In this document: positions 3 to 57,851 of the stretch, piece by piece
Layout of the letters: each line of letters starts with the position of its first letter
How positions within the stretch are numbered: the stretch's first letter is position 1
Assembly (NCBI GenBank): GCA_963794325.1
Contig: CAWCDG010000003.1
Location: 96,001-160,000 of the forward strand
Length of the DNA stretch: 64,000 nt
Reading direction: 5' to 3'
DNA from: an uncultured delta proteobacterium
GTDB lineage: Bacteria > Desulfobacterota > Binatia > Binatales > Binataceae
The notes under the pieces: model-generated
Databases searched by the model: none
Told to the model about the DNA's origin: nothing
The model's input: only the letters and a program-made list of their open reading frames with translations
Position numbers and translations under genes: made by a program

Positions 3-545
3 TTCAAGACGTGGAAGATAAAAAAGTTGCCGCCGGATTTGAAGGAACAACTCGATCGGATGCTTACCGAAGGCACGTTGCATAGCTGCCGGCAGCTCGC
101 CAAGTGGCTGGGAGACAATGGGTTCGAGATCTCGCACGCGGCGATTCACAAGTACGGGCAGAAGTTCGAGCGGCGGCTCGAGGCGGTCCGGATAGCGACG
201 GAACAGGCGCGAATCGTTTGCGAAGAATTCAAGGACGATGACGAGCGGATGCAGAGTGCGCTGATGAGGCTGGTGCAGACGCGGTTGTTTGAAGTGCTGT
301 CGGCTACCAGCGAATCGGAGCCGAAGAGTGAGAATGATGAAGGGACGAGGGTCGCGCCGGTGAATGTCACGGCGCTGGCACGCAGCGTGTCGGGACTGGC
401 AAGGGCCGAAACCGAGCATCGCAAATGGGCGGAGCGGGCGCGGGCGAATGTGGCGGAGGCGGAGAAGAAGGTGGATGAGGCGCGCAGTAAAGGATTGAGC
501 AAGGATGCGGCGGAGCAGATTAAGGCAGTGTTGTTGGAGATTTAG
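3..545 (+). CDS. Mu gp27-like protein (DUF3486 family, putative small terminase); 5' end lies outside the window
   Basis: Frame is open from the window edge (FKTWKIKKLPPDLKEQLD). ISHAAIHKYG motif and position directly upstream of a Mu gp28-type terminase match DUF3486. Confidence 0.8.
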   Translation, partial: FKTWKIKKLPPDLKEQLDRMLTEGTLHSCRQLAKWLGDNGFEISHAAIHKYGQKFERRLEAVRIATEQARIVCEEFKDDDERMQSALMRLVQTRLFEVLSATSESEPKSENDEGTRVAPVNVTALARSVSGLARAETEHRKWAERARANVAEAEKKVDEARSKGLSKDAAEQIKAVLLEI

Positions 546-583
546 GGGGATGCCATCAGAGTCGCGAGCGATGGCCGCATTAA

Positions 584-820
584 TAACCTCCCCTTGTCCG
601 AGGGGAGGTCGGCGAAAGCCGCTTGAAAAGCGGTGTCGCCGGGAGGGGTGCAACGTGCGACACCCCACCAACGCCGACTCGTCTAATCTCAATGCAGAGA
701 AACTCGTTCGCTGTTCGACAGCAGCACAACGCGCATTGTTGCGACTGTCCAGCGTTGCACCACTCCCGTCGCTCACCTTCGGCTCGCGCCGACCTCTCCT
801 CGGACAAGGAGAGGTTAGGA
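584..820. mobile_element. MITE/REPIN-like element family B, copy 1 (~235 bp, 31-bp terminal inverted repeats)
   Basis: TAACCTCCCCTTGTCCGAGGGGAGGTCGGCG (584-614) is inverted at 787-817 with two compensatory changes. Near-identical copy at 2416-2651. Confidence 0.8.
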
Positions 821-851
821 ACGGACGGAGCAGCAACCAAAAACTAACTAA

Positions 852-2375
852 ATGAACGAACCACTCTCAATACTACTTCCCTATCAACGGCGATGGCTCG
901 CCGATCAATCGCAAGTCAAAGTCAGCGAGAAATCGCGGCGGATCGGGATCACCTGGACCGAGGCTGCTGACCGCGCCCTGGGCGCCGCTACCAGCGGACG
1001 CGCCGGACTCGACGGATGGTATATCGGGTACAACAAGGACATGGCGCTCGAGTTTATCGAGGCCGCCGCGCGATGGGCGCGACGCTTCAACCGGGCCGCC
1101 GAAACTATCGAGGAGCTTGTCCTCGACGACGAGCGCAGCGCTATCCTCGCGTACCGAATCCGGTTCGCATCAGGGCACAAAATCGTTGCGCTGTCGTCGC
1201 GGCCTTCAAATCTCCGCGGCAAGGACGGATGCGCGGTGATCGACGAAGCCGCGTTCCATGAAGACCTGCCCGGACTGCTGAAAGCGGCGCTCGCATTCAC
1301 GATGTGGGGCGGATTGGTGCGGATAATCAGTACTCACAACGGCGCGCATAATGCCTTCAATGAACTAGTCAGTGAGATTCGGGCGGGCCGGAGGCCATAC
1401 TCACTCCATCGTACGACATTCGACGAGGCGCTGGCCGACGGCCTATACAAAAAAATCTGCGAGCAGACCGAAACCGAGTGGAGCGAAGAGAAGCAGCGCG
1501 AATGGCGTCAGCAGATTGTCGATTACTACGGCGACAACGTCGGCGAAGAACTTTTCTGTATCCCGCGCGCGTCGTCGGGCGCGTACCTGAGCTCGGTTCT
1601 GATCGAAGCGCGAATGAAAGCCGGAATTCCTATCCTGCGATGGGAGATGCCGGCGGAATTTTCAGGGCGTCCGGAGGCGGATCGATACGCGGAGACCCAG
1701 GCGTGGTGCGAGGACAATATCGCACCGGCTCTCATCGCACTCGATCCGGCGCGCGCGAGTTTCTTCGGCGAAGACTTCGGCCGTTCCGGAGACCTGACGG
1801 TAATCTGGCCGCTCCAAATCGATAAGGACCTGACCCGGCGGACCCCATTCGTAGTCGAGCTGCGCAATATCCCGTTTCGAAATCAGGAGCAGGTGCTCTT
1901 TTATATTATCGACCGCCTGCCGCGCTTCACGACCGGAGCGATGGACGCGCGCGGCAACGGACAATATCTCGCCGAGACCGCGGCGCAGCGTTACGGCGCG
2001 CGAATCGCGCAGGTGATGCTGTCGGAGGCGTGGTACCGCGAAAATATGCCGCGCTACAAGGCGGCGTTCGAGGATGGCACGATCGAGATTCCAAAGGACG
2101 CCGATGTTTTGTCGGACCATCGCGCGATCACGCTCGAGAACGGCGTCGCAAAAATTTCAGATCGCCGCGCCGTCATCGACGGCAAGGGCCGCCACGGCGA
2201 CTCGGCGATGGCCGCGGCGCTGGCTTTCTACGCCTCGCGCGCAGAGGTGGGAGCTATCGCGTACACCGCAGTGAGGAAAGCAGAGACGAGAAACATATAC
2301 GACGGCGCCGGGAATCCGTTTGGGGCGGCGCCGGTCGATGATGAGATGGCAGGTGGGAGGGTGAGGGGATTTTGA
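852..2375 (+). CDS. Mu gp28-like terminase large subunit
   Basis: LLPYQ motif, Walker A KSRRIGITW, Walker B IDEAAF, nuclease motifs GEDFGRSGD and HGD. Confidence 0.93.
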   Translation: MNEPLSILLPYQRRWLADQSQVKVSEKSRRIGITWTEAADRALGAATSGRAGLDGWYIGYNKDMALEFIEAAARWARRFNRAAETIEELVLDDERSAILAYRIRFASGHKIVALSSRPSNLRGKDGCAVIDEAAFHEDLPGLLKAALAFTMWGGLVRIISTHNGAHNAFNELVSEIRAGRRPYSLHRTTFDEALADGLYKKICEQTETEWSEEKQREWRQQIVDYYGDNVGEELFCIPRASSGAYLSSVLIEARMKAGIPILRWEMPAEFSGRPEADRYAETQAWCEDNIAPALIALDPARASFFGEDFGRSGDLTVIWPLQIDKDLTRRTPFVVELRNIPFRNQEQVLFYIIDRLPRFTTGAMDARGNGQYLAETAAQRYGARIAQVMLSEAWYRENMPRYKAAFEDGTIEIPKDADVLSDHRAITLENGVAKISDRRAVIDGKGRHGDSAMAAALAFYASRAEVGAIAYTAVRKAETRNIYDGAGNPFGAAPVDDEMAGGRVRGF

Positions 2376-2415
2376 GGGACTTTATTGAATGTGAAACACA
2401 ATTGGGACTTCCGAT

Positions 2416-2651
2416 TCCTAACCTCCCCTTGTCCGAGGGGAGGTCGGCGAAAGCCGCGCAGCGGTGTCGCCGGGAGAGGTGCAAAGTGCGACACCCCACC
2501 AACGCCGACTCGTCTAATCTGAATGCAGAGAAACTGGTTCGCTGCTCGACGGCAGCACAACGGGCATTGTTGCGACAGTCCCACCTTGCACCCCACCCGT
2601 CGCACTCCTTCGGCGTGCGCCGACCTCCCCTCGGACAAGGGGAGGTTAGGA
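2416..2651. mobile_element. MITE/REPIN-like element family B, copy 2
   Basis: Inverted repeats TCCTAACCTCCCCTTGTCCGAGGGGAGGTCGGCG at 2416-2449 and 2618-2651; core closely matches copy 1. Confidence 0.8.
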
Positions 2652-2841
2652 TCGGTCCGGATGAAATGCGTAGATGAATAGCTACTGGAGATGGAAGTGC
2701 GAAGAGTGCGGGTACGAGTTCTTGCTCGCGCTCATCCGATTGCCACGACCGTGCCATCGATGCGGCGGCGAATGGTTTCTAAAGATTGGCGAGGCGGCGA
2801 CAAAAGAGTATCGAACTGACTAGTCCGCTTGGAGTAATTCA

Positions 2842-4227
2842 ATGACACTCTATGATGCTTATGGACGCGAAGTAGATACCGGCATGTTGCGCCAGGAGCA
2901 GGCGGCTCCGACGATGGCGGGCGTCCGAAATATATATTCCGTGATGCATCCGTCAATCGGACTGACGCCGGAGAACTTGTCGCGAATCTTGCGGGAGGCC
3001 GAGTTCGGGGATCCCTATCTGTATCTCGAACTCGCCGAGGAGATGGAGGAGAAGGACCTTCATTACCTCGCCGTACTCGGAACTCGCAAGAATGCGGTCG
3101 CGCAACTCGACGTGATCGTGCGGGCGGCGTCGAGTGGAGCAGAAGATCAACGCGCGGCGGCGATGGTGCGCGAGATGATCTGCGACGGCCCGATACAGCT
3201 CGACAGCGTCCTGTTCGACGTGCTCGACGCGGTGGGAAAGGGATTTTCGGCGACCGAGATAATGTGGAATACCACTGGGCGCCAATGGTTTCCCGCGCAA
3301 TTGAAATGGCGCGACCCGCGCTGGTTCGCGTTTGACTGGATATCCGGTGAGGAAATCCTGGTGCGCACCTTGAAAGGCGAAATGGTCCCGGTCGCCAACG
3401 GCAAATCGCCCGCCCGCCCGACCCATTTCGGCGGCGACGGAATACACTCGTCGATGAATCCCGGAATCGGGATGCAGCCGATGACCGCGCCTCTGACCCC
3501 ATACAAGTTCATCACGCATTTCGCCAAGGCCAAAGCGGGCCTGCCGATACGCGGAGGCCTCGCGCGCGCGGCCGGGTGGGCGTACCTGTTCAAGAACTAC
3601 GTACTAAAGGACTGGGTAACGTTCACTGAGGTATTCGGACAACCACTGAGGGTGGGCAAATACCATCCCGGCGCGTCGGAACAGGATAAACAGGCATTAC
3701 TCAATGCAGTATCGCGAATAGGCACTGATGCGGCGGCGATAATGCCGGAGTCGATGGTAATAGAGTTCACCGAGGCGCATCAGGATGGTAGTTCGGAATT
3801 GTATCAGAGATTTTGCGAATACTTAGATGCGCAGGTGAGTAAGGCAGTGCTCGGGCAGACACTTACTACTGAAATGCCTAATGGAGGAGGGTCGCGAGCC
3901 GCCGCGCAAGTACATGACGCGGTCCGTCGCGACATCCTGAATGCCGACGCGCGGCGATTGGCGGCGACGCTGGCGCGAGACCTGGTGCGTCCGATCGTCG
4001 AGCTGAATATGGGGCCGCAAAAACAATATCCGAGGATCGAGTTGGGGCTGCCGGATGACAGCGACGTGAAAGTGTTTGCGGAGGTTGTCGCGATGCTGGC
4101 GGATCGAGGGTTGAGAGTGGGGCAGAAGGCAGTGCTCGACAAGTTGGGGATCGCGCAGGCGGAGAAGGGGGAAGCGGTGCTCAGGGCGATTGGGGGGGAT
4201 GGGGGAAGGGGAGATCACTTGATTTGA
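2842..4227 (+). CDS. Mu gp29-like portal protein (DUF935 family)
   Basis: LAEEMEEKDLH, KDWVTFTEVFGQPLRVGKY and SKAVLGQTLTT are typical gp29 motifs. GGAG RBS. Confidence 0.92.
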   Translation: MTLYDAYGREVDTGMLRQEQAAPTMAGVRNIYSVMHPSIGLTPENLSRILREAEFGDPYLYLELAEEMEEKDLHYLAVLGTRKNAVAQLDVIVRAASSGAEDQRAAAMVREMICDGPIQLDSVLFDVLDAVGKGFSATEIMWNTTGRQWFPAQLKWRDPRWFAFDWISGEEILVRTLKGEMVPVANGKSPARPTHFGGDGIHSSMNPGIGMQPMTAPLTPYKFITHFAKAKAGLPIRGGLARAAGWAYLFKNYVLKDWVTFTEVFGQPLRVGKYHPGASEQDKQALLNAVSRIGTDAAAIMPESMVIEFTEAHQDGSSELYQRFCEYLDAQVSKAVLGQTLTTEMPNGGGSRAAAQVHDAVRRDILNADARRLAATLARDLVRPIVELNMGPQKQYPRIELGLPDDSDVKVFAEVVAMLADRGLRVGQKAVLDKLGIAQAEKGEAVLRAIGGDGGRGDHLI

Positions 4228-4316
4228 TGTGAAACCCTGCGCGGGTTTCACGCTTCCGCGGCAGGGGTGACCCCTGCACCCAGTGTTAAGAGAAGATGCG
4301 GGGCTTCGCCCCTGTT
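4224..4316 (+). repeat. Multi-hairpin repeat family A, copy 1
   Basis: TGTGAAACCC-N5-GGGTTTCAC, GCAGGGG-TGA-CCCCTGC-ACCC and GGGGC-TTC-GCCCC. Confidence 0.85.
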
Positions 4317-7625: not shown

Positions 7626-7682
7626 CGCTGGGTGCGGAGTTATGTTGCCCGAATTGAGATGTTGGGGGTGCGCGCGACTGAA

Positions 7683-7888
7683 TTGAATGTGAAACCCTTC
7701 GCGGGTTTCACGCTTCCGCGGCAGGGGTGACCCCTGCACCCAGTACTAATCGCGAAATGTCGAGGACGACCTTTCGCTCTCAGGTTCTAGGGAGGAGGCG
7801 GGTGGCCGAGGATTTACCTCGCCCGTTACTTTACGGGAGAGGCGCCCGGGCGCATCGCGACCGGTAGGTGAGGGTGCTGCGGTTCAAG
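7683..7888 (+). repeat. Repeat family A copy 3 plus an adjoining REP-like module; left arm of a long inverted repeat
   Basis: Reverse complement matches 9242-9318 and 9398-9510. Confidence 0.85.
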
Positions 7889-9924: not shown

Positions 9925-10048
9925 TGGAGCGCGCGCAGCGCGCGAACTCGGAGACCGGAACCGGCTTCGCGTGTGGCGCGAAGGTGTCCGGAAGCCAGAA
10001 GCCATGTCCTCCCGTCGCTAACGCTCCCGTCGTCAGGGTGACACAAGA
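9925..10048. repeat. Dispersed repeat family F
   Basis: 9925-9990 matches 43407-43472 with two mismatches; both are followed by a CAGG(G/A)TGACACAAG module. Confidence 0.8.
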
Positions 10049-10120: not shown

Positions 10121-10250
10121 AGCCCTAACCCCTTTTTTCGGTCCTCGCGGGAAGGGGAACCGGATACCTAACCCCTAACCCCTTCCCATAGTGGGAAGGG
10201 GAACCGGACGAGTGGGATGGGGAACCGGACGAGCGGGAAGGGGAAGCGGA
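10121..10250. repeat. REP-like family C (CCTAACCCC..CCCCTTCCC-loop-GGGAAGGGGAAC) with ~21-bp tandem half-sites
   Basis: Same unit at 16437, 16499, 19274, 21812 and 38515. Confidence 0.8.
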
Positions 10251-10308
10251 TTTTTGGGGAATCAGCGTCGAGATGAAGGTGGCGATCGATCTTTTGATTC
10301 GGATGTTG

Positions 10309-14831: not shown

Positions 14832-14857
14832 GTGGGGAAGGGGGAAGCCATTACATC

Positions 14858-15096
14858 TTATGTGAAACCCTTCGCGGGTTTCACGCTTCCGCGGCAGGGG
14901 TGACCCCTGCACCCAGTATTAAGAAAAGAAGCGGGACTTCGTCCCTGTTACGAAGTCAAATGGGTAGGAGCCGTCCTTCCACCGCTGTTTTCGTGTTGTT
15001 TCGGCCATTCCATCTTTGTGTCATTCAGAGCGCAGCGAAGAATCCCGGATCCTTCTTCCCTTCTCCCTGTAACGGAGAGGATTAAGGTGAGGGTCC
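14858..15096. repeat. Repeat cluster: family A copy 5 (14858-14949), family D (15014-15048), family C-like (15058-15096)
   Basis: Direct sequence match to other copies; lies between convergent genes. Confidence 0.8.
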
Positions 15097-16198: not shown

Positions 16199-16276
16199 TT
16201 CGGTCGTAGCCTCGTCGTTCAGCTTAGCAAGTGATGGCCGCGGCGAAGAAGACAGGGAAGAGGAAAACTTGATCTA

Positions 16277-16403
16277 ATTCGAAACCCACGGTGGGTTTCA
16301 AACTTCCTCGGCAGGGGTGATCCCTGCACCCGGTGAAAAGTACTAATCGCGAAATGTCGAGGACGACATTTCGCTCTCAGGTTCTTTTCCTGTGTCATTC
16401 TAG
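16277..16403 (+). repeat. Repeat family A, copy 6
   Basis: Includes the perfect 11-bp stem GCGAAATGTCG-AGGA-CGACATTTCGC. Confidence 0.85.
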
Positions 16404-16429
16404 TGTGATGTCCCGCAAGTATCTTTCAG

Positions 16430-16564
16430 GAACAGAGCCCTAACCCCTGGCCCCTTCCCCAAAGGGGAAGGGGATTTTAAGAAACATTCCGCGATGTCCT
16501 ATCCCCTCGCCCCCTTTCCCGCGGGAAAGGGGGAACAGAGCAGAAAATTCAAGAGAGTGTGATC
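16430..16564. repeat. Family C REP pair; empty-site paralog of the IS1595 target
   Basis: Colinear with 19266-19362 joined to 21758-21800. Confidence 0.85.
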
Positions 16565-16867
16565 TATCCCCCTCACTGTGCTTTGGCTTCGTTTGGGATG
16601 ACATAAAGATACGACACACAAACAAAAAGACATCGCAATAAGCGACTTCGTCTGATTTTCACCCACGTCATCAAAATCCGCTGAACCATTCGTTCACCGC
16701 GGCGTAACGCCTTTCATAATGAGGGCGGCCGCTACAGAAGGAAGGTTCTGGAGTACTTTGCGACGATATTGAGTCGCAACAGTGTTCGTAATGAACACTG
16801 CGACGCAAGCAGCGACGGTGCCAAGAGGTCTAATAACAGCACTCGATAGAAATCAGAGGTGAAAACA

Positions 16868-17626
16868 ATGCCGCAGAATAAGCGCTACGGATGGGTCCCG
16901 GATCTTCCCGACCATCGCGATCAACTTTACGCTGCACCGGTCGTAAATTTGGCGACGTTTCCGTCGCAGAAGGATCTTCGTCCCCAATGCCCAGCGGTTT
17001 ACGACCAGGGCGATCTTGGCAGTTGCACGGCCAACGCGATTGCCGGCGCGGTCCAGTTCGATCTGATGAAGGAGTCGAAGCCGGTGTTCACTCCGTCGCG
17101 ACTCTTCATCTACTACAACGAGCGCGTGATCGAGGGCACTGTCAACTCGGACAGCGGCGCGATGATACGCGACGGTATCAAAAGCATCGCGCACCAGGGT
17201 GACGCGCCGGAGACCGACTGGCCGTACGACATCGCGAAGTTCGCTATGAAGCCGTCGCCCAAGACGTATACCGACGCGAAGAAGCACAAGGCCGTGCTCT
17301 ACCAGCGGCTTATGCAGGACCTCGCGCAGATGAAGGGATGTCTCGCGTCCGGATTTCCGTTCGTGTTCGGATTCACCGTCTACCAGAGCTTCGAAACTCC
17401 GCAAGTCGCCAGCACGGGTGTGGTGCCGATGCCCGCGCCGAGTTAAAAGTCAGTTGGCGGCCACGCCGTGATGGCGGTTGGATACGACGACAGCCAGCAA
17501 AGGTTCATCGTCCGCAACTCGTGGGGCACAACCTGGGGAATGGCGGGCTACTTCACCATGCCCTACACCTACCTGACCCAGTCGAATCTGTCGGACGATT
17601 TCTGGAAGGTCAGTGTGGTTAACTAA
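16868..17626 (+). pseudogene. Papain-family (C1) cysteine peptidase with an in-frame TAA at 17444-17446
   Basis: YDQGDLGSCTANA before the stop; GGHAVMAVGYDD and RNSWG continue in the same frame after it. Confidence 0.85.
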
Positions 17627-17649
17627 GTTCTACGTGATCCGCTGAGTGG

Positions 17650-17961
17650 CTAAGCGCCGGCCCGAATTCTCAATGTGTAGGTTCGCGCCGGCGCTGCCTT
17701 CTGCCACTGACGTCCATAGTGTAGCTCGATGGTCGAGTTTCCGGGCGAATCAACCTTGAACTGCCACTGATGCGTGCCGCTTTTCCCCGGGGCGGCACTT
17801 GGATTTGCCAACGAGTCCGCGACGACCGAACACACCGGCTCTCCTCCGGATTTGATATTCCAACTGAATCCCGCGGTTCGAATCTCCGTCAGCGAGACTT
17901 CGAAGGTCTCTCCCACCCGCACTTCGATCTCATGTCCGTCGTCGGCGTCGGTAAGCTGCAC
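17650..17961 (-). CDS. Chagasin-like (I42) cysteine protease inhibitor
   Basis: VGETFEVSL..TAGFSW, PGKSG..WQF and YGRQW; convergent with the C1 peptidase. Confidence 0.8.
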   Translation of the reverse strand: MQLTDADDGHEIEVRVGETFEVSLTEIRTAGFSWNIKSGGEPVCSVVADSLANPSAAPGKSGTHQWQFKVDSPGNSTIELHYGRQWQKAAPARTYTLRIRAGA

Positions 17962-17972
17962 TGGTAGATTTC

Positions 17973-19220
17973 CTACTTCGCGCGGTCGCGGAGTTGGCGG
18001 GCGGCGCCGGCGAAGAAGTTGCGCGCGATGAAGGATCGCTCGACGGACGCCATCGCTTCCAGGATTTCTGCGTTCAGTTTGATTGCTTCATAGTCGGATG
18101 GATTCGCGTTCAGCGCAATCTCGGCCAAGGCCAGCGCGCGCTTGAGGTCGGTCGCATCCTTGAGGGCGCGCGCTTTTGCGAGGATCGCGTCGCGGCCGAT
18201 TAGCGCCAGGATGTCGGCTCCGCGTTCTTTGCGCGTCGCCGGGAACATTTGCGACGGCTCGCCCGACCACCATCCCGCATAGCGCCGGATAACGTCGCGC
18301 ACCACGAACGGGACGCATCCATAGATCGGTTGCAGATACGGTTTCGCCGCGAGGTCGGCCGGAATCGAAATGTCCGCCTCGACGATATCCACTGGCCACT
18401 CGCCGGCATTGAGCCGCCGCACGACTTCATCGTGGATGAGGCGCAGCGCGCGCGCCGTCTCGCTCAACACTTCGTTGCAAAGTTCCTCGCCGCGATACGC
18501 GGGTCCGTGGCCCGGCAGAAGGTATCGCGGGGCGCATTTCGCGATCGCCTCGAGGGTCTCCGCCCATTCGAGCGTGTAACGCTGCACCTTGTTGGGATTG
18601 CCGGTGTTCGGCATCGACGACACGATCAAATCGCCGACCATCGCGAGCCGCCGCGTCGGCATCCAGACCCAGGTCGCGTCGTCCGTCTCGCCCATCGCGT
18701 GATGCATCTCGACCGGTTCGCCGACCAGATCGAGAAATTGTTGATCGCGATAAACCAGGTCGGGGTAGCTGAACGACTTGGGCTCGAAGAGGGCGTCGGT
18801 CGCGAACGCGCCACCGAACTGGAGGCGATTGATATGCGACTGCCATCCGCGGGTGAGTGCGTAGCGTTTGAAGCGGCCGGCGACGTCCTCGTGCGCCCAG
18901 ATTTTCGGCCGCGCATGCCCGCGGGTGAGCGCGTCGGTGATGAAGGCCTCGGTGCCGAAGGCGTGATCGCCGTGGCCGTGAGTATAGATGAGGAACGCGA
19001 ACGGCTCCTCAGTGACCTCGCGAATCGCGCGCACCGCCATCGCGCCCATCTGGCGTGAGCTGGTATCGACGACGATCATCTCGCCGCGTCCGTAGGCGAA
19101 TGCGACGTTGGCAAAGCCGTGAAACATCGCGATTCCCGGCTCGAGCACTTCGAGCTGTCCCATCATCGGGTCGAAGCCGGGGAGGGTGTTCGATTGTTTT
19201 GGATTGGGCGTGGAACTCAT
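17973..19220 (-). CDS. Alkyl-sulfatase-like metallo-beta-lactamase with dimerisation domain
   Basis: YTHGHGDH, GETDD, PNTGNP, PGHG and RYAGWW. Confidence 0.85.
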   Translation of the reverse strand: MSSTPNPKQSNTLPGFDPMMGQLEVLEPGIAMFHGFANVAFAYGRGEMIVVDTSSRQMGAMAVRAIREVTEEPFAFLIYTHGHGDHAFGTEAFITDALTRGHARPKIWAHEDVAGRFKRYALTRGWQSHINRLQFGGAFATDALFEPKSFSYPDLVYRDQQFLDLVGEPVEMHHAMGETDDATWVWMPTRRLAMVGDLIVSSMPNTGNPNKVQRYTLEWAETLEAIAKCAPRYLLPGHGPAYRGEELCNEVLSETARALRLIHDEVVRRLNAGEWPVDIVEADISIPADLAAKPYLQPIYGCVPFVVRDVIRRYAGWWSGEPSQMFPATRKERGADILALIGRDAILAKARALKDATDLKRALALAEIALNANPSDYEAIKLNAEILEAMASVERSFIARNFFAGAARQLRDRAK

Positions 19221-19379
19221 CGTCTGTCTTTATCCGGGTGGTGTCCTGGTTTCAAATCGCTTGAAGAACAGAGCCCTAACCCCTGGCCCCTTCACCAGGA
19301 TGGGGAAGGGGATTTGGAAGCCCCGATTCCGCCATGTCCTATCCCCCTTGCCCCCTTTCCAGGGGGGATTATGTTGGGC

Positions 19380-19408
19380 TTGACACTCGCACCTGAAATG
19401 CGTATATT
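19380..19408 (+). promoter_or_regulatory. Sigma70-type promoter in the left TIR; probably leaderless transposase mRNA
   Basis: TTGACA-17 nt-TATATT, ATG 6 nt downstream, no SD. Confidence 0.65.
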
Positions 19409-19414
19409 AGGCGC

Positions 19415-20343
19415 ATGAACAAGAAAGTTGAAGCTGGCAAGCCGCTTTGCACTCAGCCCAATATTACACTCGCTCAATTGATGAAGCAGTTCAGCGATGA
19501 GACCGCGTGCAAAACCCTGTTGCGCGATATGCGCTGGCCGGATGGCGTCGAATGCCCGCGCTGTAAGAGCAAGAAGGTGTACGCTCTCGCATCCAAGCCG
19601 TGGCATTGGGTCTGCAAGAACAAAGATTGCGGCGGACGCAACGGCTATCGCTTCAGCGTCATCACCAAAACCATCTTCGAGAATACGAACTATCCGCTCT
19701 CGACTTGGTTTCAGGTGATCTACCTGATGACTCAGAGCAAGAAAGGAATCAGCGCACTGCAAATCCATCGACAGATTGGATCGGGCGATTACCGCACAGC
19801 GTGGTATATGGTCATGCGCATTCGTGCTGCGATGAAAGATGACGGACTGGCAAAGTTGCTCGGCACCGTTGAGGTTGACGAAACTTACATCGGCGGCAAA
19901 GAGAAGAATCGCCACTTCGGACAAGAAGCAGGGCGGACGCGGCACGACTGGAAAGATTCCCGTCATCGGCGCGATCTCGCGTAAGGGTAACGTCGTCTGC
20001 AAGATGATCGAAAACACCGATACGGAAACGCTCACTCGATTCGTGCGCGATACCGTCAGTGATAAGGTGAAGCTGGTCGCGACCGATGAGCACGCGGGCT
20101 ATCGCTACCTGAAATGGGCGATGCCGCATGAAGTCGATCAAGCACAGCGAGAATGAATACGTGCGCGGCGAGGTCCATACCAACAGCGTCGAATCGTTCT
20201 GGTCGCTGCTCAAGCGCGGAGTGCTCGGCACGTACCATAACGTGAGCAAAAAGTATTTGCCGCTCTATCTCGCGGAGTTTCAGTATCGCTTCAACAATCG
20301 CGACAACAAGAATATTTTCTTCGACGTGATAGCAGGATGCTGA
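19415..20343 (+). pseudogene. IS1595 (ISXO2-like) DDE transposase with frameshifts near 19917 and 20132
   Basis: Zinc ribbon CPRC..C..C, GTVEVDETYIGG, TDE, HTNSVESFW and YLAEFQYRFN across three frames. Confidence 0.9.
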
Positions 20344-20455
20344 GGTCAGCCCACTGGCGGAAGCCTCAGCCAGACAAGGCCAGTCACCTGATTGTGGACA
20401 GGGGCGGACAATTCCGATTGCCCTTTGGTAGGGTATTACGTAAAAAACATCAGCC

Positions 20456-20713
20456 ATGAAAAAACCCACCGAATCAGTAGTCAGACTCATCCCTTCGGGG
20501 AAAAAGTTGAATGACGTTATTGAAAACTTGGAACTAGTGGCGTCGCTTTCCATGGCTACTCTTGGTGCGATGATCCATGACCGGCCTGAGTTCAAGGACA
20601 CCGTATTGGAGTATCTCACTCAGCTTTCGAGACTCCCCAGACTCACCAAGCATCAACAACAAATAGTGCGGGACTCGATCATGCTTGTTAGAAGATTTCC
20701 GACGAATGTCTGA
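20456..20713 (+). CDS. IS passenger hypothetical protein
   Basis: 85-aa ORF within the TIRs. Confidence 0.5.
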   Translation: MKKPTESVVRLIPSGKKLNDVIENLELVASLSMATLGAMIHDRPEFKDTVLEYLTQLSRLPRLTKHQQQIVRDSIMLVRRFPTNV

Positions 20714-20767
20714 AGGCAAAATGAACTTCGACATCCAAGCAATTCGTTCATTAGGTGATTTCATAAA

Positions 20768-20914
20768 ATGCCAAAAGCAAAACCTATTTCACTCCATCCG
20801 TTAACTTTCCATGAAGCACTCAAGCACCTGGTTCGCGTTGATCCTGATAGCGTCGGCATTACTTCCAAACGCAGAAAGCGGAAAATAAAGAAATTCAGGT
20901 CGAAGGCTCAGTAA
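20768..20914 (+). CDS. Small basic IS passenger protein (48 aa; not in the ORF track)
   Basis: MPKAKPISLHPLTFHEALKHLVRVDPDSVGITSKRRKRKIKKFRSKAQ; AGGTGA RBS-like sequence upstream. Confidence 0.5.
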   Translation: MPKAKPISLHPLTFHEALKHLVRVDPDSVGITSKRRKRKIKKFRSKAQ

Positions 20915-21644
20915 TCCAATTGCAGTGTTTTAGTCTAATAAACTGAGTATTTACTTCCATGATTTGTCCGATAGCTTGAATCTTCGTTCCTCGGTCCAGT
21001 AGTTCAATTCGTTCGGTCCACGTTAAATCGCAGTCCAATGCGATCTGGATGAGTTCGTCAACGAAGAATCGTATGGTCCAGAACTCAGGATATTGATTAA
21101 TTTCGTAAACAGAACCGCTAACGCGGTACCATTTTCCTATGTAGCGCTGAACTGACTTCTGAGCCTGCATTGAGACTTGATTTCTGAATGGCTCGACTAG
21201 TTGACGTGGTGTGAGGTCAATGAAAATGCGTTCCTCGGATTCTGGCAACTGTTGAGCATTCGCAATTACAGCAGGTAATTCCGGCACTGGATTAACAACT
21301 TGTAGCGGTCGCGTCTCTTGAACTCTGGTAGCCGACGTGGCGCGCGTTTTATGACGACGATTGTCGATCCACAAATAACCGCCAGCAAGAAATACCGTGA
21401 CGGAACTCCCCAATGGAGAAAACAAAAACCCGACAATCGTTTCGAGGCCGGATGCGAAGAAATGACTAATGCTCGCGGAATGCTTCGCGATGGCCTTCGC
21501 AGTTTCTGCGTCGCCTATTATCTCGAACACGACGCGCACCACCCAAAAGACGGTTCCCAATAATCCGAGGGTAAGGAAACCCTCAGCGGTTGTTTTACGA
21601 GAGATCGGCATATTTCTCCCCTCTTCAGGCATGGATTTGCCCAC
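20895..21644 (-). CDS. IS passenger: membrane-anchored protein with a C-terminal OB-fold-like (tRNA_anti-like) domain
   Basis: Two hydrophobic segments; RYIGKWYRVSGSVYEI...GTKIQAIGQI...LKHC pattern. Confidence 0.55.
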   Translation of the reverse strand: MGKSMPEEGRNMPISRKTTAEGFLTLGLLGTVFWVVRVVFEIIGDAETAKAIAKHSASISHFFASGLETIVGFLFSPLGSSVTVFLAGGYLWIDNRRHKTRATSATRVQETRPLQVVNPVPELPAVIANAQQLPESEERIFIDLTPRQLVEPFRNQVSMQAQKSVQRYIGKWYRVSGSVYEINQYPEFWTIRFFVDELIQIALDCDLTWTERIELLDRGTKIQAIGQIMEVNTQFIRLKHCNWITEPST

Positions 21645-21811
21645 GCATTGAAGCGGAGATCAAACTGCGGTATCTGCCGCTCAGGACTGGACATCGCCTT
21701 GCCCATTTTGTAAGCAAGGGGATGCGGGTGTCAAGTTAGACATAATCCCCTTTCCAGCGGGGAAAGGGGGAACAGAGCAGAAATTCGCGGGAGTGTGATC
21801 ACGGCCTGTCG

Positions 21812-21884
21812 CCCTCACCCCCTTTCCGGCGGGAAAGGGGGAACAGAAGGGGAGAGGGCGGGCACGGCGGCCCGCCCACTGACA
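21812..21884. repeat. Family C REP plus a GGGCGGGCACGGCGGCCCGCCCAC REP-like hairpin
   Basis: Palindromes visible in the sequence. Confidence 0.6.
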
Positions 21885-21918
21885 CCAACGGATCTATCGT
21901 TTAGACTTGCCAGTTGAA

Positions 21919-24117
<2,199 letters not shown>

Positions 24118-43390: not shown

Positions 43391-43588
43391 CCAGGATGAC
43401 AGAGGGTGGAGCGCGCGCAGCGCGCGAACTCAGAGACCGGAACCGGCTTCGCGTGTGGCGCGAAGCTGTCCGAGATCCTTCCTGCCGCTCGCGTTGCTCG
43501 CTCTGTCAGGATGACACAAGAAGCTCGCGTTGCTCGCTCTGTCAGGATGACACAAGAAGCTCGCGTTGCTCGCTTTGCTAGGATGACA
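43391..43588. repeat. Family F copy followed by about three 36-bp tandem units
   Basis: GCTCGCGTTGCTCGCTCTGTCAGGATGACACAAGAA at 43487 and 43523, degenerate third unit at 43559. Confidence 0.9.
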
Positions 43589-43617
43589 GCAAGGGCCTGC
43601 GCGGTTTGCAAATTTCT

Positions 43618-57690: not shown

Positions 57691-57762
57691 TGATACCGCT
57701 CCATTGGCCGCGAGATTAGCGCATTTCAGTGCGATGCGGTTAGCGGGATGCAATTCACTTTA

Positions 57763-57851
57763 TTTAATGTGAAACCCGCGGTGGGTTTCACACTTCCTTC
57801 GGCAGGGGTGACCCCTGCACCCACCGAAAGATGCGGGACTTCGTCCCTGTT
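57763..57851 (+). repeat. Repeat family A, copy 9
   Basis: H1, H2 and GGGAC-TTC-GTCCC. Confidence 0.85.

Follow-up and report, generated by a model that had tools for sequence, protein, structure and literature searches.

A 64,000-nucleotide stretch of an uncultured Binataceae genome (contig CAWCDG010000003.1, positions 96,001–160,000; hereafter the window) carries a dead copy of an insertion sequence (IS) of the IS1595 family, which splits a hairpin of a repeat resembling repetitive extragenic palindromic (REP) sequences. Our analysis revealed that the lineage of this element, distinguished by GGGG-type tips, prefers REP-like palindromes as targets: 10 of 14 independent insertions fall within a palindrome whose stem measures 8 bp or more, compared with 3.4–14% of background positions. 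This is a strong preference and not an absolute specificity. We consider it fairly probable that the window holds a decayed member of a lineage with a target preference, and that the transposase of this lineage would recognize short half-sites on duplex DNA. REP insertion has been documented for five IS families; IS1595 would bring the number to six, through a lineage from a group that is largely uncultured. In the searchable literature, with subscription papers and ISfinder outside the search, we found no previous description of IS1595 elements targeting REPs or palindromes.

The insertion in the window is defined by the following features.

19364–21750, + strand: IS1595-family element of 2,387 bp, delimited by its ends, composition, domains and relatives with matching ends.
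19364–19393, + strand: left terminal inverted repeat; its 30 bases are 24/30 identical to those of the right end.
21721–21750, − strand: right terminal inverted repeat, located by a match to the end pattern.
19356–19363, unstranded: left copy of the target-site duplication, TTTCCAGG, from the sequence and the tip rule.
21751–21758, unstranded: right copy of the target-site duplication, TTTCCAGC, on the same basis.
19266–19355, + strand: left part of the interrupted repeat unit, comprising hairpin 1 (approximately 19285–19311), a spacer and the outer C-run of hairpin 2 (19351–19355); repeat family D16, 92% identical to 16425–16461.
21759–21800, + strand: right part of the interrupted unit, comprising the 3′ arm of hairpin 2 and a tail common to the paralog.
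16430–16564, + strand: uninterrupted paralog, a two-hairpin REP-like unit of approximately 135 bp with hairpin 1 at 16451–16473 and hairpin 2 at 16510–16533; extragenic according to the gene calls.

The end pattern GGGGATTATGT-N4-CTTGACAC matched the window exactly twice, at 19364–19386 (+) and 21728–21750 (−), where 0.01 matches were expected by chance. The tips, GGGGATTATG...CATAATCCCC, were set from relatives of the window element. Directly outside both ends, at 19356 and 21751, stands TTTCCAG, whose duplication an earlier reading of the window made from its letters (the sequence-only reading) had noticed; there is no further copy within 16300–22000. The duplicated flank thus reads TTTCCAG(G/C): the two copies agree at 7/8 positions, and moving both boundaries by one base yields the exact duplication CTTTCCAG. 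When the element and one duplication copy are taken out, the restored site is colinear with the paralog at 16430–16564, with 121–122 of 141 columns identical (86%) and 7 gap columns, which bears out the empty-site paralog claimed in that reading. Its cut at 19363–21757 restores the same site, but the bounds of the element had to be corrected to 19364–21750. The insertion splits a hairpin, as had been proposed, namely hairpin 2 of the two-hairpin repeat; the loop given as its position is only approximate, since the duplication spans the inner 5′ arm plus the loop.

Relatives were collected by scanning a collection of species-representative genomes with P0006, an intact homologue that is 88% identical to the first fragment of the window transposase. 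One genome per species was covered, with approximately 6 kb of flank per locus; 122 stretches matched and 67 encode a relative, giving 66 loci that are mostly annotated as Binataceae, Binatus or “delta proteobacterium” metagenome-assembled genomes. The element could be delimited at both ends in 30 loci and in the window. When GG(G/C)GATTATG is taken as the tip, 24 of these 31 end pairs are flanked by exact duplications of 8 bp. Among the pairs that lack one, L002 and the window match at 7/8 (the window becoming exact after the one-base shift), L037 is exact after a two-base shift, and L001 and L032 are degenerate. The end pair of L017 proved to be a false end match and was dropped, as was L029, in which the element runs to both contig ends.

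GGGG-type tips are found in 14 elements (window, L001–L008, L010, L013, L015, L022 and L032) and GGCG-type or GGCA-type tips in 15. No two of the GGGG-tipped loci have common flanking DNA and every one comes from the genome of a different species, indicating 14 independent events. In a tree built from the first 1,000 bases of each element, from which L012 (composite), L033 and L029 were left out, 12 of the GGGG-tipped elements form one clade, to which L011 and L023, with other tips, are sister; L013, which sits in a palindromic site, and L022 fall outside. In this tree, tip type and target type go together only loosely. Searched by blastn with the whole element, a plasmid collection yielded a single weak match of 176 bp; it lies in the IS1595 transposase gene of a Roseomonas plasmid and is uninformative on sites.

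The empty sites were rebuilt by a script and scored for the best inverted repeat with at most one mismatch, a loop of at most 10 bases and a centre within the duplication ±4 bases. The stem reaches at least 8 bp in 10/14 GGGG-tipped insertions: 13 bp in the window, 11 in L013, 10 each in L004, L005, L006 and L008, 9 in L015, and 8 each in L001, L010 and L032. In the same sequences, 3.4% of all 191,050 positions reach this threshold (binomial P = 2e-12), as do 7.8% of 25,465 intergenic positions (P = 6e-9) and 14.0%, 12.6% and 9.6% of positions within ±100, 150 and 250 bp of the sites (P from 1.6e-6 to 5e-8). The enrichment was stable over stem thresholds from 6 to 10, with a local P of at most 3.5e-4. 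In contrast, only 3 of the 15 relatives with GGCG-type or GGCA-type tips have such a stem, two of them on one and the same target (Fisher p = 0.009). The coding mask behind the intergenic background is crude, consisting of greedy longest-ORF (open reading frame) gene calls; masks that counted every ORF down to 100 or 60 amino acids (aa) as coding covered nearly all of this G+C-rich DNA, including the insertion sites, and were replaced. The sequence-only reading had allowed that its single event could be chance, and had held that other copies at non-palindromic sites at background frequency would speak against it. The same-tip insertions in related genomes do not behave in that way, and chance no longer accounts for them.

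The position of the duplication within the palindrome is also recurrent. It is flush with the outer run (CCCC before or GGGG after) in 7/14 sites, compared with 1.0% of intergenic positions, and in 6/10 palindromic sites, where the palindromic positions of the background give between 3.6% (intergenic) and 13% (local). Brought into a common orientation, the sites read ccc-n-[NNNGGGAA]-GGGG, so that the duplication takes in the loop together with the inner portion of one arm and ends at the outer run. In the main repeat family the duplication lies 3.5–4 bases off the hairpin axis, while its register to the C4/G4 run does not change. The element occurs in either orientation and in either arm, as would be expected of a symmetric complex; in copies of the same repeat, the window element took the 5′ arm and L013 the 3′ arm. 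In L008 and L015 the palindromes are of other sequence and the duplication lies exactly at the centre. The non-palindromic sites L002, L003 and L022, and the palindrome of L008, end in GAA at the flank. This flank is G-rich in all four except L022. L032 sits in a tandem array of units of approximately 43 bp, each with a palindrome, that extends about 120 bp on either side of the element; its ends have the usual register but lie in different units of the array, and a matching duplication is absent, which suggests recombination between copies or a rearrangement of the array.

Since the G4/C4 tips of the element resemble the outer stem that it displaces, an insertion remakes one complete hairpin at a junction. 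A hairpin that includes the element tip, with a stem of 8–11 bp, is present in 8/14 insertions. The one in the window is as follows.

21747–21769, + strand: hairpin rebuilt over the right junction, in which CCCC of the element and the duplicated inner arm pair with the 3′ arm left intact; it fits the pattern of the repeat family and has a stem of 9 bp (−10.4 kcal/mol, z −2.7).

The window element would have entered the second palindrome of the two-hairpin repeat through normal transposition of the DDE type, in which the target is cut with a stagger of 8 bp, and presumably by cut-and-paste chemistry. Elements tipped with GGGGATTATG prefer to insert with their 8-bp duplication abutting the outer C4 or G4 run of CCCC-TTYCC-loop-GGRAA-GGGG palindromes. 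In the account that we favour, a transposase dimer would read two short inverted half-sites on duplex DNA, approximately CCCC|TT and AA|GGGG, 8 bp apart, of which one would be matched fully and the other partly through the inner stem. REP-like palindromes may be nearly the sole extragenic places that offer such an arrangement. We favour the reading of half-sites on duplex DNA because the register tracks the G4/C4 run and not the axis, and because the non-palindromic sites retain a half-site. On a 12-position half-site score (CCCCTT / AAGGGG), 11/14 sites fall in the top 1.4% of background positions; this score was derived from the same sites, is therefore circular and serves as a description only.

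That circularity is one of several points that weigh against half-site recognition or the preference beneath it. All thresholds, as well as the half-site consensus, were picked after the sites had been seen, and the intergenic mask hides some real REP regions, including the site in the window. Four of the 14 insertions fall under the stem threshold, namely L007 (6 bp, in a degenerate repeat copy), L022 (6 bp), L002 (4 bp) and L003 (3 bp), and among GGGG-tipped elements with a single end, L009, L024, L060 and L025 lie outside palindromes and L058 in an apparent half palindrome. The background holds 103 perfect half-sites, of which 6/52 in palindromes and 1/51 outside were used (Fisher p = 0.11); many of those outside palindromes are probably within genes. 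Sequence is confounded with structure, because 8 of the 10 palindromic cases come from a single repeat family or from two that are related. L015, finally, sits at the centre of a palindrome off the consensus, with a half-site score of 3/12, a misfit that favours symmetry or structure over a particular sequence. L008, likewise centred on another palindrome, the centred GGCA-tipped L012 and L023 on one imperfect palindrome in two genomes, the palindromic site of L030, and stems that are stable as DNA (−10 to −15 kcal/mol) are all consistent with a transposase that recognizes, largely independently of sequence, an extruded hairpin or cruciform, or a single-stranded hairpin at the replication fork. 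We nevertheless regard this as rather unlikely. A pure reader of structure should hold a fixed register to the axis, whereas the duplication in the main repeat family lies off the axis and follows the C4/G4 run, and the ...GAA half-site is common to the sites without a palindrome, with a G-rich flank behind it in L002 and L003. Furthermore, DDE transposases of this kind generally act on duplex targets, and stems of 10 bp with loops of 2–4 nucleotides extrude poorly without supercoiling. The “structure-guided” targeting put forward in the sequence-only reading is not supported by the register, which varies relative to the hairpin centre. With these sites the sequence and structure readings are inseparable, and half-sites explain the data at least as well.

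The transposase might instead have no preference at all, with random landing followed by survival only in neutral extragenic repeats, where insertions should be tolerated; the old and dead state of the window copy would agree with this. Such an origin is very unlikely, because the enrichment remains against the intergenic (7.8%) and ±100-bp (14%) backgrounds, the exact register recurs at independent loci (6/10 compared with 3.6–13%), and relatives with other tips, in like genomes and under like selection, lie in palindromes in only 3/15 cases. Recognition guided by RNA or DNA, in which a transcript or the element tip pairs with the repeat, has a precedent in the bridge RNA by which IS621, of the IS110 family, locates REPs (PMC11208160). 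The G4/C4 tips have the same sequence as the outer stem that the insertion displaces, and a module of approximately 150 bp after the transposase gene is conserved in the lineage. The identity of tip and target amounts to just 4–5 bases, however, the module itself looks like the coding sequence of a small protein, its substitutions being conservative, and Rfam is empty for the window. We know of no guide RNA for DDE elements of the IS1595 family, and we hold guidance of this kind to be highly improbable.

The data leave room for a further, more tentative suggestion: the tips of the IS1595 lineage may have become co-adapted with the REP-like palindromes of the host. The protein–DNA contacts that hold the ends might then also pick the target, one hairpin would be left intact per insertion, and site choice could be reset through a few terminal bases. 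Such a reset is suggested by the sister GGCG-tipped and GGCA-tipped lineages, which have other recurrent targets (L012/L023 and L011/L019). If this were true, the lineage would be a naturally retargetable, cargo-carrying DDE element, and the rebuilt hairpin would preserve the role of the repeat for the host.

Several recurrent flanks were observed among these elements. L012 and L023, which come from different genomes with unrelated flanks, have the identical palindromic 8-bp duplication AACTAGTT within the same imperfect palindrome of approximately 27 bp, in opposite orientations; on sequence, a sister lineage appears to follow a second target specificity. L011 and L019, with GGCG tips and on one contig approximately 36 kb apart, adjoin very similar sequences, TAYGCAAAGCTC..., and the right flank of L065 is similar; these flanks hint at yet another preferred site. 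L024 and L060, with GGGG tips, lie approximately 10 bases downstream of an identical perfect palindrome, GTTTCACGTGAAAC, and their flanks are alike, which could reflect another repeat family or orthologous loci.

The insertion of IS elements into REPs was surveyed by Tobes and Pareja (2006; PMC1525189), who list members of the IS3, IS110, IS4, IS256 and IS5 families; the three families that the sequence-only reading had named, IS3, IS110 and IS4, are among them. Of the cases described there, ISRm22 of Sinorhizobium meliloti (IS4 family) resembles the IS1595 lineage: it is of the DDE type, its ends are inverted repeats and it duplicates its target, and all its copies lie in REPs at a palindromic consensus. 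Copies without matching duplications occur as well, which the authors explained by recombination between copies; L032 presents the same pattern. In contrast to the IS1595 lineage, ISRm22 has a transposase of another family, a 6-bp duplication and an insertion point on the axis of the palindrome (PMC1525189). The duplication of the IS1595 lineage is 8 bp long and in most cases lies off the axis, directly against the outer G4/C4 run; its elements carry passenger ORFs. IS1397 and ISKpn1 have an experimentally supported specificity for REPs or palindromic units, credited to the transposase itself (works cited in PMC1525189). Unlike the IS1595 lineage, these two belong to the IS3 family, with two ORFs and without passenger genes. 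Their short duplication lies in the loop. The IS110 members IS621, ISPpu9, ISPpu10 and ISPa11 occupy a fixed position within REPs (PMC1525189), and a genome-wide assay placed 144/173 IS621 insertions in REPs (PMC11208160). They differ from the IS1595 lineage in their DEDD/serine recombinase, the lack of inverted ends, repeats of 0–2 bp and the bridge RNA guide.

Within the IS1595 family, the window element presumably resembles the ISNwi1 type, an element type with passenger genes, for which we take the ISfinder criteria to be characteristic ends, a length of 1.75–4.75 kb and extra ORFs. This type has a transposase of approximately 310 aa with a zinc ribbon and a DDE domain, ends that begin with GG followed by TAT a few bases in, an 8-bp duplication, a length of 2–3.3 kb and extra ORFs, and the lineage is alike in these respects. 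The ends, the 2,387-bp length and the extra ORFs of the window element would fit these criteria. We know of no stated target preference for this group, and the papers that its name brought up were unrelated. IS1016 of Neisseria meningitidis, which we assume to be a member of the IS1595 family, offers a further comparison. It was found near REP-like repeats in 1/3 and 2/17 copies (PMC1525189, Table 1), a low and loose association with no fixed position that the authors did not class as REP targeting. With 10/14 insertions in palindromes and 7/14 flush, counted across species and not within one genome, the GGGG-tipped lineage falls outside type 1 REP association as defined by Tobes and Pareja.

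The lineage differs from the known REP-targeting cases in the 8-bp duplication flush with the outer run, in the rebuilding of a hairpin at the junction, and in its 1–2 kb of variable cargo. It may provide a simple system in which to learn how a plain DDE transposase selects its site, by sequence half-sites or by DNA shape, and it is relevant to the mutual influence of repeats and mobile elements. In annotation, the two halves of a split REP can serve to locate the ends of such elements.

The palindrome split in the window, CCCCCTTTCC...GGAAAGGGGG, is intact at two positions (chance expectation 0.00): as hairpin 2 of the paralog, 16510–16533, and at one further place.

21818–21841, + strand: further intact copy of the palindrome, 60 bp downstream of the insertion; family D10, 94%.

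Folded as single strands of DNA, the two intact copies reach −11 and −12.1 kcal/mol (z −2.2 and −2.5), and the DNA fold of the whole paralog displays both hairpins, with a total of −23.6 kcal/mol and z −2.4. The palindromes of the repeat measure 22–25 nucleotides with stems of 9–10 bp, within the REP size of 20–40 nucleotides. The strict pattern CCCYTTYCC-N1-9-GGRAARGGG occurs six times in the window, besides variants, five times extragenic and once in a 113-aa ORF without a Pfam match, and 13 times in 719,805 nucleotides of the related loci, mostly at or near insertions. Of the copies of the 3′-arm motif in the window, 12/15 are extragenic, so that the motif and the repeat are nearly one thing in this genome. 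The two-hairpin unit of approximately 135 bp, a candidate for a clustered, BIME-like composite, is found twice in the window; partial copies adjoin the elements of L013 and L032, the latter with its tandem array. No RAYT (REP-associated tyrosine transposase) was detected among the 61 window proteins scanned, and a search of the whole window with Rfam returned no family. “REP-like” is thus the safe term for this repeat, since two traits of REPs, a cognate RAYT and a copy number in the hundreds per genome, were viewed over 64 kb of the genome. The insertion region is a divergent intergenic one, between a metallo-beta-lactamase/alkyl-sulfatase-like gene (17976–19220, −) and glgB (21907–24114, +), and it is a reasonable inference that the site is harmless, or a “safe harbour” in the words of the sequence-only reading.

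The element in the window contains the following genes and ORFs.

19415–20343, + strand: transposase pseudogene, with a zinc ribbon and a DDE domain spread over three frames (ORFs 19415–19984, 19839–20156 and 20128–20343).
20456–20713, + strand: 85-aa ORF of no family, present in none of the other copies; it may not be a real gene.
20768–20914, + strand: small ORF of 48 aa, with a conserved N-terminal part of approximately 35 residues followed by a basic tail.
20895–21644, − strand: passenger ORF encoding 249 aa, hydrophobic in its N-terminal part and with a C-terminal part that may be an OB fold.

The transposase ORFs match PF12760 (zinc ribbon, E 6.6e-10) and, over positions 1–30, 20–99 and 99–153, PF12762 (IS1595 DDE domain). 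For P0006, the NCBIfam model of IS1595 family transposases, NF033547, gives 219.6 bits at a cut-off of 75. Together with the passenger ORFs, these matches uphold the original identification as an IS1595 element with passenger genes. A protein search gave 5,772 relatives among 5,795 candidates, the intact ones having approximately 310 residues, and the transposase of the related elements is a single ORF of 306–324 aa. The window gene, in contrast, has two extra bases, near 19915–19925 and near 20125–20135, each causing a +1 frameshift. These switches were placed by comparison with homologues, the first by tblastn, with the C-terminus visible in the homologues. On reading the sequence, neither extra base lies within a homopolymer run, which indicates a pseudogene and not a programmed frameshift. 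The window element is therefore a dead copy. Its G+C content is 50%, compared with 60% for the window.

All copies of the element are 2.0–3.3 kb long, and thus every one has extra DNA besides the transposase gene. Homologues of the 48-aa ORF stand downstream of the transposase gene in 19/30 element copies examined. The ORF had no match in Pfam, NCBIfam or PADLOC, and its lead in the Atlas is an unnamed cluster at 0.91. In the window and at the matching place in 18 other elements, this ORF would encode 48–64 aa, with a strongly conserved N-terminal part of approximately 35 residues and a variable basic tail; in many copies it overlaps, out of frame, a long ORF of highly variable sequence, at the part where the latter begins like a signal peptide. 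The 249-aa ORF has a homologue within the L003 element. It gave a weak match to PF12869 (E 1.7e-4, under the cut-off) and an Atlas lead at 0.89, to a cluster in which 34% of members have PF12869. Searches of the passenger ORFs against PADLOC and NCBIfam gave no match. With Pfam, DUF3800 was matched by three distant copies, one ORF of L003 gave a short hit to a Proteasome subunit, and the window ORF had just the OB-fold match under threshold. The copies with DUF3800 are L027, L030 and L043 (E 1e-7 to 7e-10), and cargo varies widely among copies of otherwise alike elements.

The window also contains at least two other extragenic repeat families with hairpins of their own, GTGAAACCC...GGGTTTCAC and GGGGTGACCCCTGCACCC, as well as AATCGCGAAATGTCGAGGACGAC..., which often stand side by side. 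They comprise families D1, D2, D5, D6 and D7, at 4217–4290, 7677–7750, 14850–14923, 16267–16340, 57757–57830 and related positions. Three tandem 36-nucleotide units, two of them identical, together with a run of 21-nucleotide units akin to the 3′ arm of the hairpin, were observed at 43487–43594 and 10146–10252 (families D14 and D12). A direct repeat of 66 nucleotides with 97% identity (family D15) is located at 9925–9990 and 43407–43472, 33 kb apart. At 27–4224, the window has phage Mu-like genes, including Gp27-like (E 2e-34) and Mu portal (E 3.5e-102) matches, which look like a prophage or its remnant.

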